From NCBI RefSeq assembly GCF_003334765.1, contig NZ_QOWT01000007.1: a stretch of DNA of 64,000 nucleotides; one strand, given 5' to 3'. Both the position numbers and the translations under genes were made by a program. This DNA comes from Escherichia coli (GTDB taxonomy: Bacteria; Pseudomonadota; Gammaproteobacteria; Enterobacterales; Enterobacteriaceae). This document shows positions 23,256 through 35,507 of this stretch, in pieces. The notes beneath the pieces are model-generated. The model searched no databases, was not told where the DNA came from, and worked only from the letters and a program-made list of their open reading frames with translations. Position 1 is the first letter of the stretch; every line of letters starts with the position of its first letter.

Positions 23256-24902
23256 TCAGGATTTTTTCTTCTCGCGGCTATGCAGGCCACGTTTTTCCAG
23301 ACCACGGTAAATCAGCTGCTGCTGAATAATGGTTACCAGGTTGCTGACGATATAGTACAGCACCAGACCTGACGGGAACCACAGGAAGAACACGGTGAAG
23401 ATGACCGGCATAAAGGTCATGATCTTCTGCTGCATCGGGTCGGTCACTGTGGTCGGCGACATCTTCTGAATGAAGAACATCGTTACGCCCATCAGGATCG
23501 GCAGGATGTAGTACGGGTCCTGTGCCGACAGGTCGTGGATCCACAGTGCAAACGGTGCCTGACGCAGTTCAACGGAACCCATCAGCATGTAGTACAACGC
23601 CAGGAAGATTGGCATCTGGATCAGCAGCGGGAAGCAGCCGCCCAGCGGGTTAACCTTCTCAGCTTTGTACAGCGCCATCATTTCCTGGCTGATACGCTGT
23701 TTGTCATCGCCCAGACGCTCACGCATTGCCTGAATCTTCGGCTGCAACATACGCATCTTCGCCATGGAGGTGTACTGCGCTTTGGTCAGCGGGTACATGA
23801 TGCCACGAACGATAAAGGTGATGATGATAATGGAGAAGCCCCAGTTACCCACAAAGCTATGGATCCATTTCAGCAGTTTGAACAGCGGCTGAGAGATGAA
23901 CCACAACCAACCGTAATCAACGGTCAGATCCAGGTGCGGAGCAACAGCTGCCATTTTGTCCTGGATTTCCGGGCCAACCCACAGGGTGCTGTTCATCGCG
24001 CCAGTCTGACCAGGCTGAACCAGTACCGGCTGAGATTTATAGCCGATAGCGGCGATGCCGTTACCCAGATTAGCGGTATAGAAGTTGTTGGTACCGTCGT
24101 TATGCGGGATCCACGCCGTCGCGAAATACTGTTGCAGCATCGCCACCCAACCACCTTTCGAAGAGATGTTCAGGTTTTCGTTATCGGCAATGGTATCGAA
24201 CTTGTATTTCTCATACTTCTCGTCAGGCGTGGAGTACGCCGCGCCACGGAAGGTGTGCAGTGCGAAGTTGCTGCTTCCGGTATCGAGATGCGGTGGCAGA
24301 GTGATGGATTGCTTCAACTGACCAAACGAGGAGATTTCCAGCGGTTTCTCGCCAGCGTTCTGCACGTTGTAGTTGACGTTGACAGCGTAATCACCACGTT
24401 TCAGGACAAACGTTTTGGTAAACGTGTTGCCTGCCGCGTCGGTATACGTCATCGGCACCTGCAGTTCGTTTTGACCTTCAGCCAGCACATAAGCGTCTTT
24501 TTCAACGTTATACAGCGGACGCGGGCCGTTAGCCGGGTTATCCGGGCCATCACGACCGGTCAGACCGCTCTGTGCCTGATAAATAAACTGCGGTGAAGTT
24601 TCCAACAGCTGGAACGGCTGGGTAGAGTTCAGCTCTTTCGGGTAAGCAGGCAGCAGAGCTTGCTCAACATCACCACCACGGGTGTTGATGGTCAGATCAA
24701 GCACGTCGGTCTTAACCGAGATCAGTTTCCCCTGGCCACTGGCCGGTACGCCCTGGTCGGCGGCGCTACCCGCTGCGGTGGTCGTTGTCTGCGTGGTCTG
24801 TTGGGCCTGAGGTTGCGGGTTTTTATCCTGCTCCCAGGCTTGCCAGATCATGAAAGACACGAACAGCAAAGCGATGACTAAAAGATTGCGTTGCGAATCC
24901 AT
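23256..24902 (-). CDS. yidC: membrane protein insertase YidC
   Basis: 548-aa ORF. Confidence 0.95.
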
Positions 24903-33883: not shown

Positions 33884-34540
33884 TTATTGGTTTACTGCAT
33901 ATACAACCAGAAATTGCAGCGGTGCAGTAATGATGTCCAGCGTAACAGTCACTGGCAGTAATGCTGCGGAAACACCATCCGGAATGCCTCTGGGTGAATA
34001 GTATTCATAAAATCGCACTTTAAATGGATGGTAGAACGCCATCACCTTTGAGTAATCCATGTTTTTATTTTTCTCATGGATTGTGCCTTTTAGGTTTTCC
34101 AGTGACCTGGTACAGTGTTGAACACCACAGGCAAAACCATAATGCGTTGCCAGTGCCTTTTCTTCTTCGTTATTCCAGTAGTAGTAAAGCGATATTGTGC
34201 CGGTAAATTTCTTTTTCCCCGCATTTAAAACAAATCTTGCGTCATCGGCAACCTGAATATTGTGCCGGTTAAGTGCTGGATCATTGAGCATCTTAACGAT
34301 GTCATCGGCACCATCAGTGATAAGGTAATCCAGCGATTCCCCTACAAAAACATAGCCTTTTGTTCCATTACTATCTTTTGCCTGCGATAGCCCAGTGATG
34401 GTGTCTGACTGCGATTGATACTTTCCTGAACTACCCTTTGCGGTATGGGAAACCAGAGCATACGAGATACAGCCTGAAAGCATCAGCGCCAGTGGGAATA
34501 AACCGGCAGCCTTAAAAAATCCCTTAAAATTCAACTTCAT
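33884..34540 (-). CDS. yidX: putative lipoprotein YidX
   Basis: 218-aa product [24 protein letters not shown]... with lipobox LSGC; track ORF extends further upstream to 34657. Confidence 0.78.
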
Positions 34541-34678
34541 GATTAATCCTTTAAACGAGTAGCTAAGCCGTTGAAAGCATACTCTTCTTTCCCTCCTGTT
34601 TAGCGCCTGATATCCCTTTTCAGATTTCTGCCCGACGCATGTCATTTTTTTATGCATTGTTCTTTTTGTGATCTAAAT

Positions 34679-34751
34679 TGTAGTACAACAATATAAGTTT
34701 GTACTACATTACACGCACGGCAAACGCGAACGTCATCACGCTGGTACTACA
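34679..34751. promoter_or_regulatory. candidate DgoR operator repeats in dgo promoter
   Basis: Three GTA-N-TAC palindromic motifs: tgtagtaca (34679-34687), tgtactaca (34700-34708), ggtactaca (34743-34751); first two 21 bp apart. Confidence 0.45.
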
Positions 34752-34817
34752 AAGTTGCCGCGTTATGCATCGATCGGGGTAAAGTAGAGAAGAACATACA
34801 GAGCACAAGGACTCTCC

Positions 34818-35507
34818 ATGACTCTCAATAAAACCGATCGCATTGTCATTACGCTGGGTAAACAGATCGTTCACGGCAAATACGTGCCAGGCTCGCCGCT
34901 TCCGGCTGAGGCGGAACTCTGTGAGGAGTTTGCAACCTCGCGCAACATCATCCGTGAGGTGTTCCGTTCGCTGATGGCGAAGCGGCTGATTGAAATGAAA
35001 CGTTATCGCGGGGCGTTTGTGGCACCGCGTAACCAGTGGAATTACCTCGACACTGACGTACTGCAATGGGTGCTGGAAAATGACTACGACCCACGGCTTA
35101 TCAGTGCCATGAGCGAAGTGCGAAATCTGGTGGAACCGGCGATTGCCCGTTGGGCAGCAGAGCGCGCGACTTCCAGCGATCTGGCGCAGATTGAATCGGC
35201 GCTGAACGAGATGATTGCCAACAATCAGGACCGCGAAGCGTTTAACGAAGCGGATATTCGCTACCACGAGGCGGTGCTGCAGTCGGTGCATAACCCGGTG
35301 TTACAGCAACTTAGCATTGCGATCAGTTCGCTGCAGCGGGCGGTTTTTGAACGAACCTGGATGGGCGATGAGGCCAACATGCCGCAAACGCTCCAGGAAC
35401 ATAAGGCGCTGTTCGATGCGATACGACATCAGGACGGCGATGCGGCAGAGCAGGCGGCGCTTACCATGATCGCCAGCTCGACACGAAGGTTAAAGGAAAT
35501 CACATGA
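34818..35507 (+). CDS. dgoR: GntR/FadR-family repressor DgoR
   Basis: 229-aa ORF with N-terminal winged HTH. Confidence 0.9.
   Translation: MTLNKTDRIVITLGKQIVHGKYVPGSPLPAEAELCEEFATSRNIIREVFRSLMAKRLIEMKRYRGAFVAPRNQWNYLDTDVLQWVLENDYDPRLISAMSEVRNLVEPAIARWAAERATSSDLAQIESALNEMIANNQDREAFNEADIRYHEAVLQSVHNPVLQQLSIAISSLQRAVFERTWMGDEANMPQTLQEHKALFDAIRHQDGDAAEQAALTMIASSTRRLKEIT

Follow-up and report, generated by a model that had tools for sequence, protein, structure and literature searches.

The yidX–dgoR region and its three palindromes

The window analysed here is a stretch of 64 kb of Escherichia coli DNA that includes the dgo operon. RefSeq gives the order of genes as yidX (minus strand), an intergenic region of 277 bp, and dgoR-dgoK-dgoA-dgoD-dgoT; the start codon of yidX lies at 34540 and the ATG of dgoR at 34818. 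The chromosome is K-12-like, and the 1.2 kb around the sites described below is 100% identical to many complete E. coli genomes. In B2-type E. coli (CFT073, UM146) homology to the window begins only from ~34500, and a different upstream gene is annotated. The list of open reading frames offers a longer, 257-aa form of yidX (33884-34657, minus strand, with its ATG at 34657), which would reach within 21 bp of the first palindrome. We treat this extension as an artefact: RefSeq places the start at 34540, and the RefSeq protein begins MKLNFKGFF…, which is lipoprotein-like.

34818..35507, plus strand: dgoR coding sequence, 229 aa; a GntR/FadR-subfamily repressor and the first gene of dgoRKADT (list of open reading frames; RefSeq WP_000174305.1, 100% DNA identity)
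34807..34811, plus strand: Shine-Dalgarno sequence of dgoR, AAGGA, 6 nt before the ATG; read from the sequence and conserved in the anchored alignment

A preliminary description had placed dgoR, as a regulator gene, at the head of the operon, and RefSeq bears this out: the operon is dgoRKADT, and the product of its first gene is a GntR/FadR-subfamily protein. RefSeq names that product D-galactonate utilization regulator DgoR, and a cognate FadR-subfamily regulator is thus encoded at the locus itself. The best NCBIfam matches of the product are NanR, LldR, GlcC and PdhR, all under their cut-offs.

The intergenic region holds three short palindromes of the FadR type, at the positions first reported for them (tgtagtaca, 34679-34687; tgtactaca, 34700-34708; ggtactaca, 34743-34751). 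The symmetric units are longer than was first noted, at 11 bp each; they are designated S1, S2 and S3, and their positions are given relative to the inducible promoter P1.

34678..34688, no strand: S1, TTGTAGTACAA (TTGTA-G-TACAA), a perfect palindrome; DgoR operator IR1, overlapping the P1 -35 region and the right CRP half-site
34699..34709, no strand: S2, TTGTACTACAT (TTGTA-C-TACAT), one mismatch; DgoR operator IR2, overlapping the -10 hexamer of P1
34742..34752, no strand: S3, TGGTACTACAA (TGGTA-C-TACAA), one mismatch; predicted third DgoR operator

The centres fall at 34683, 34704 and 34747, which gives distances of 21 bp (S1–S2), 43 bp (S2–S3) and 64 bp (S1–S3), or approximately 2, 4 and 6 helical turns. 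The separation of exactly 21 bp claimed for the first two sites is therefore correct; their description as lying "immediately" upstream of dgoR is not, the three sites being spread from 140 to 66 bp before the ATG at 34818.

The core GTASTAC occurs seven times in the 64 kb, compared to an expectation of 2.35. The longer form TNGTASTACNA occurs twice (S1 and S3) compared to an expectation of 0.09, a count of two being reached in none of 100 shuffles, and four sequences in the window lie within one mismatch of TTGTA[C/G]TACAA compared to an expectation of 0.57, three of them inside this single stretch of 75 bp. The clustering of the palindromes far exceeds chance. The fourth near-consensus sequence, ATGTAGTACAA (23587-23597), is one mismatch from the DgoR palindrome; it lies inside a 548-aa open reading frame on the minus strand (23256-24902, yidC-sized), and we reject it as a DgoR site, its occurrence probably being due to chance. 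The same probably holds for a further GTAGTAC core at 23508.

Operators of the FadR subfamily, including those of DgoR, FadR, LldR and PdhR, take the form TNGT-N3-ACNA, in which GT and AC are separated by 3 nt (PMC4494728). S1 and S3 fit TNGTASTACNA exactly and S2 deviates at position 11 alone; S3 also fits TNGTNNNACNA in full. The initial assignment of the palindromes to a regulator of the GntR/FadR type is supported both by this form and by the cognate FadR-subfamily regulator encoded downstream.

Published operators and conservation across species

Work from the Chaba laboratory places DgoR dimers on 'two closely spaced inverted repeats' that overlap the D-galactonate-inducible promoter, and D-galactonate frees the DNA (PMC11705089, PMC12288454). 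The sequence of the first repeat, IR1, is given as CTAAATTGTAGTACAACAATAT, and the second, IR2, carries 'one mismatch' (PMC11705089). The published IR1 oligonucleotide, 5'-CTAAATTGTAGTACAACAATAT, matches positions 34673-34694 of the window letter for letter and contains S1. Independently published Sort-Seq data (Belliveau et al. 2018, PMC6003448) define a footprint of the repressor type at -140..-110 relative to the ATG, an interval which in the window is 34678-34708, that is, S1 plus S2. A probe covering -145..-110 pulled down DgoR (Belliveau et al. 2018, PMC6003448), and the footprint is gone in ΔdgoR cells or in galactonate (PMC6003448); Reg-Seq treats the dgoR promoter as comprising two DgoR sites and a CRP site. 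That S1 and S2 are DgoR operators is, in our judgement, virtually certain.

S3 has a counterpart of a different kind. Three DgoR sites, CTAAATTGTAGTACAACAATA, TAAGTTTGTACTACATTACAC and CACGCTGGTACTACAAAGTTG, are entered for E. coli b4479 in the S1 File of Suvorova, Korostelev & Gelfand (2015; PMC4494728), and all three of these 21-mers are present verbatim in the window; S3 corresponds to the DgoR_ECO site CACGCTGGTACTACAAAGTTG. The triple recurs there for E. fergusonii, Enterobacter 638, Cronobacter, Klebsiella, Shigella, Salmonella and Serratia (Suvorova 2015, PMC4494728). Since all three sites stand in that supplement, the present finding is a rediscovery of catalogued sites and is already known: S1 and S2 were shown by experiment and S3 was predicted in 2015. 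Comparison with the published dgo system (Singh et al. 2019; Belliveau et al. 2018; Suvorova 2015) reveals the same locus and the same sequences, with S1 equal to IR1, S2 equal to IR2 and no difference at either; the exception is S3, which is a computational listing, whereas the experimental model has two operators. The suggestion that the palindromes are autoregulatory operators accordingly stands for S1 and S2, with their footprint and pull-down, while for S3 the support comes from comparative genomics. In the accessible experimental literature, which describes two operators only, we found no experiment on DgoR binding at S3, and a full-text literature search for the S3 string returned no relevant paper.

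Phylogenetic footprinting had been named as a means of checking the sites, with a lack of conservation as the outcome that would speak against them. A scan of one genome per species yielded 80 dgoR loci from Enterobacteriaceae and relatives (protein identity 79-99%), and 79 upstream regions, the window included, were anchored on S1. The position and sequence of all three sites are kept across the 79 species. The S1–S2 spacing is 21 bp in every one of them (79/79), and the S1–S3 spacing is 64±1 bp in 79/79 (64 bp in 71, 63 in six and 65 in two); S2 and S3 are 43 bp apart in 71/79 and 42 to 44 bp apart in the remaining 8/79. S1 is a perfect palindrome in 74/79 species. S2 is perfect in none (0/79), carrying one mismatch in 72 and two in seven, and S3 is likewise never perfect (0/79), with at most one mismatch in 67/79 and at most two in 77/79. 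Information content, averaged over the columns of each element, is as follows.

S1: 1.97 bits per column
S2: 1.75 bits per column
S3: 1.64 bits per column
CRP left half and T-tract: 1.73 bits per column
S1–S2 spacer: 0.65 bits per column
S2–S3 spacer (before S3): 0.49 bits per column

A pairwise comparison to E. whittamii gives 0 differences in the three sites against 5/10, 12/32 and 6/27 in the spacers. At the level of sequence conservation, footprinting across 79 species confirms selection on the three sites. Since S2 and S3 do not reach perfection in any of these species, operator and promoter strength may be under selection to stay sub-maximal.

The main variants of S3 are TTGTACTGCAA (32 species), TTGTACTTCAA (16) and TAGTACTACAA (11); the E. 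coli form, TGGTACTACAA, is found in two. In most species the A of the 'AC' dinucleotide typical of the family is replaced by G or T at this site, as in TTGTACTGCAA. The E. coli 11-mer itself occupies the S2 position in Affinibrenneria (footprinting) and in Pectobacterium (Suvorova 2015), and for this reason the S3 sequence of E. coli should, as judged from these occurrences, be competent to bind DgoR.

A further conserved element lies upstream of the three sites. The TTGT of S1 is preceded, at a distance of exactly 21 bp, by another TTGT (34657-34660), which shares the phase of S1 and S2 and lacks a right half-site; 60/79 species have it unchanged, and its columns carry 1.3-2.0 bits. It may represent an additional DgoR half-site, or else belong to one of the overlapping promoters that Belliveau et al. 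describe.

The inducible promoter and its repression

The elements of P1 are packed closely around S1 and S2. A CRP site of class II geometry, with TGTGA in its logo, has been mapped to -160..-140 relative to the ATG, and TACATT has been identified as the wild-type, non-optimal -10 hexamer (Belliveau 2018, PMC6003448). In the window TACATT occupies 34705-34710; this hexamer and the class II geometry of the CRP site together lead us to place the start of P1 at ~34717.

34664..34685, plus strand: cAMP-CRP site, class II, for P1; left half TGTGA at 34667-34671, right half overlapping S1
34717 (±1 nt), plus strand: predicted transcription start of P1, 7 nt after the -10 hexamer; this puts the CRP centre (34674.5) at -42.5, a class II position

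A strict consensus scan of 34400-35000 for sigma-70 promoters and terminators gave no match, a result in keeping with weak promoters that depend on an activator and one that does not count against their presence. An identical TGTGATC (34667-34673), in which the CRP left half is combined with a Dam target (GATC, 34670-34673), is shared by 71/79 species. The homologous Dam target of Salmonella is hemimethylated, and expression of dgoR there is bistable and depends on Dam (PMC7708049). Another GATC of E. coli lies at 34772-34775, downstream of S3 and upstream of the -10 hexamer of P2, the basal promoter considered below.

According to the published model, DgoR dimers occupy IR1 (S1) and IR2 (S2) when D-galactonate is absent, and CRP and RNA polymerase are excluded from P1; D-galactonate binds DgoR's C-terminal domain, the DNA is released, and cAMP-CRP activates P1. 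The geometry in the window implies the same exclusion: S1 lies over the -35 region as well as the right CRP half-site, and S2 over the -10 hexamer, so that bound DgoR would keep both RNA polymerase and CRP from P1. The conservation data fit this occlusion model fully. Because the 21-bp spacing is invariant, S1 perfect (and nearly invariant) and S2 always imperfect, we suggest that S1 serves as the nucleation site for DgoR, and that S2 would be filled side by side with it, on the same face of the helix and probably cooperatively.

Closely spaced promoter sites occupied by several dimers are also known from NanR, another FadR-subfamily repressor of sugar-acid genes, which binds the (GGTATA)3 operator. 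There, three dimers assemble cooperatively on direct repeats, and a unique N-terminal extension provides the cooperativity. The DgoR sites differ in being inverted repeats 21 bp apart, and no N-terminal extension of the NanR kind is reported for DgoR.

One property of S2 concerns the single base by which it departs from symmetry. A change of T to A at 34709 would both perfect S2 and improve the -10 hexamer (from TACATT to TACAAT), and it is avoided among the species aligned unless the left half is degraded instead. The idea that the mismatch is forced on S2 by the overlapping -10 is wrong, given that TACAAT is the better -10.

S3 and the basal promoter P2

RNA polymerase has a further site downstream of P1, which spans -70..-30 relative to the ATG and is visible in glucose (Belliveau 2018, PMC6003448). 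In the window this interval contains hexamers that we assign, provisionally, to a basal promoter P2.

34755..34785, plus strand: downstream basal promoter P2, with predicted hexamers; -35-like TTGCCG at 34755-34760, 19-bp spacer, -10 TAAAGT at 34780-34785; predicted start at ~34792

S3 lies directly upstream of the poor -35 of P2. Measured from the predicted starts, it extends from approximately +26 to +36 of P1 (centre ~+31), and its centre is at ~-45 of P2. In 77/79 species TAAAGT, or a hexamer close to it, begins 33 bp past the centre of S3, a distance more rigid than that between S2 and S3 (43 bp in 71/79); the distance from the -10 to the ATG is looser, at 32-40 bp in all but two species. 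The fixed distance between S3 and TAAAGT (34742-34785) suggests that S3 and the downstream promoter form one module.

On the strength of the 2015 listing and of footprinting over 79 species, S3 is a predicted DgoR operator. It would be a weaker, auxiliary one, on the same helix face as S1 and S2, and its most likely role would be to let DgoR limit P2, which would tighten autoregulation of the basal supply of DgoR. S3 may in addition lend stability or backup to the S1/S2 complex on P1, through contact between dimers or as a roadblock. We favour an action on P2 because the distance from S3 to the -10 of P2 is the more rigid of the two. Several observations weigh against S3 having a role. Two inverted repeats are what the experimental groups describe, and their probe, of 55 nt, holds two sites; Sort-Seq, at base-pair resolution, detects a repressor-type shift only at -140..-110 and none at -76..-66 (PMC6003448); P2 is seen in glucose, where DgoR is active (PMC6003448); and Reg-Seq sees reason to believe that the dgoR promoter holds no undiscovered sites. 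Moreover, the G or T that replaces the A of 'AC' in most species weakens one half-site, and DgoR is reported as a dimer, with no known higher oligomer that would bridge sites 43 bp apart. Taking both sides into account, we consider it reasonably likely that DgoR occupies S3 in vivo and that this has a measurable effect. The explanation as a whole, in which DgoR on S1 and S2 represses P1, galactonate relieves this repression and S3 is an auxiliary operator, is in our view very probably correct.

The same spacing data bear on a second possibility, namely that S3 acts mainly on P1: a DgoR dimer at +31 would touch the dimers bound at S1 and S2 on the same helical face (looping or cooperativity), which would increase operator occupancy or impede elongation, and P2 would be uninvolved. 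The centres, 43 and 64 bp apart, are separated by ~4.1 and 6.1 turns, and in 79/79 species the S1–S3 and S2–S3 distances deviate by no more than ±1 bp; for the family, AraR-type cooperativity between adjacent sites has been cited (PMC4494728). The nearest precedent is LldR at O1 and O2 of lldPRD. Like DgoR, LldR is a repressor of the FadR subfamily whose own gene belongs to the acid-catabolic operon it controls. As in the dgo region, there are operators on the upstream and on the downstream side of the core promoter, and repression by LldR reportedly varies with the angular orientation of one operator relative to the other, consistent with phase-dependent looping. The arrangements differ, however: the two LldR sites flank their promoter at a much greater distance, whereas the dgo region has two sites on the promoter and a third 43 bp away. 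Looping by DgoR would be by analogy with LldR. DgoR is described solely as a dimer, and helical phasing is compatible with bridging but is not proof of it. A 43-bp loop would be sterically demanding, Sort-Seq gives no derepression from mutations near -76..-66 (PMC6003448), and the S2–S3 distance varies (42 to 44 bp in 8/79) while that from S3 to the -10 of P2 is fixed in 77/79. We therefore regard a role of S3 chiefly in P1 repression as rather unlikely, and retain P2 as its more probable target.

The sign of an effect on P2 is a separate matter. FadR activates fabA from a site around -40 and represses the fad genes, so that a site of the TNGTNNNACNA type can activate or repress according to its position, a comparison relevant to S3 at ~-45 of P2. 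By analogy with FadR at fabA, DgoR at S3 could activate P2 and so sustain its own low-level synthesis while P1 is shut. Such a role would be in keeping with the rigid distance to the -10, with the poor -35 and 19-bp spacer of P2, and with the fact that the P2 polymerase site is seen in glucose, with DgoR active, and has an upstream edge (-70) that overlaps S3 at -76..-66 (PMC6003448). Against this, wild-type DgoR cannot be detected in non-inducing medium when the dgo promoter drives its expression, and -45 is not a canonical class II position and is itself counted from a predicted start. Activation of P2 thus appears highly unlikely, and limitation of P2 by DgoR is the reading we carry forward.

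It is also conceivable that S3 is not a DgoR site, and that it is conserved as a promoter element of P2, as the site of another regulator, or as an RNA element in the P1 leader. The accessible experimental reports on the dgo promoter contain no DgoR binding at S3. The half-sites of PdhR and LldR are TTGGT, and the TGGT...ACAA of E. coli S3 resembles them; most species, however, read TTTGT at this site rather than TTGGT. The left half TTGTAC resembles a -35 hexamer, but it ends 32 bp before TAAAGT, which is too far, and there is no -10 at 17±1 bp downstream; we reject it in that capacity. An RNA element in the 101-nt P1 leader around S3 we reject as well (MFE -24.7 kcal/mol, z = -0.55 compared to shuffles, no Rfam match at E ≤ 1). 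Furthermore, the conserved columns of S3 are those of the palindrome (G3, T4, A5, C9, A10 and A11, at 1.8-2.0 bits), and we judge a function unrelated to DgoR to be unlikely.

S3 is itself flanked by inverted repeats (34724-34764), which read AACGCG/CGCGTT in E. coli and CCTCAC/GTGAGG in Enterobacter-like species, in differing registers.

Combining the above, one can picture a circuit of two promoters and three operators, in which DgoR shuts P1 through S1 and S2 and sets its own basal synthesis through S3, either by repression or by activation in the manner of FadR at fabA, with the imperfect S2 and S3 allowing graded occupancy. We put this forward tentatively; in its entirety it is a doubtful, if real, possibility.

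Control of galactonate use by DgoR matters for the fitness of E. coli in the gut. When mice are colonised experimentally, adaptive mutations arise in dgoR recurrently. DgoR also serves as a model for FadR-type allostery. What the finding mainly demonstrates is that a true regulatory architecture can be recovered from sequence alone. Beyond this, there is modest specialist interest in a conserved site, S3, that is absent from the current experimental model, both in its function and in its fixed coupling to the basal promoter. If S3 is functional, it would refine quantitative models of the 'gold standard' promoter used in Sort-Seq and Reg-Seq.
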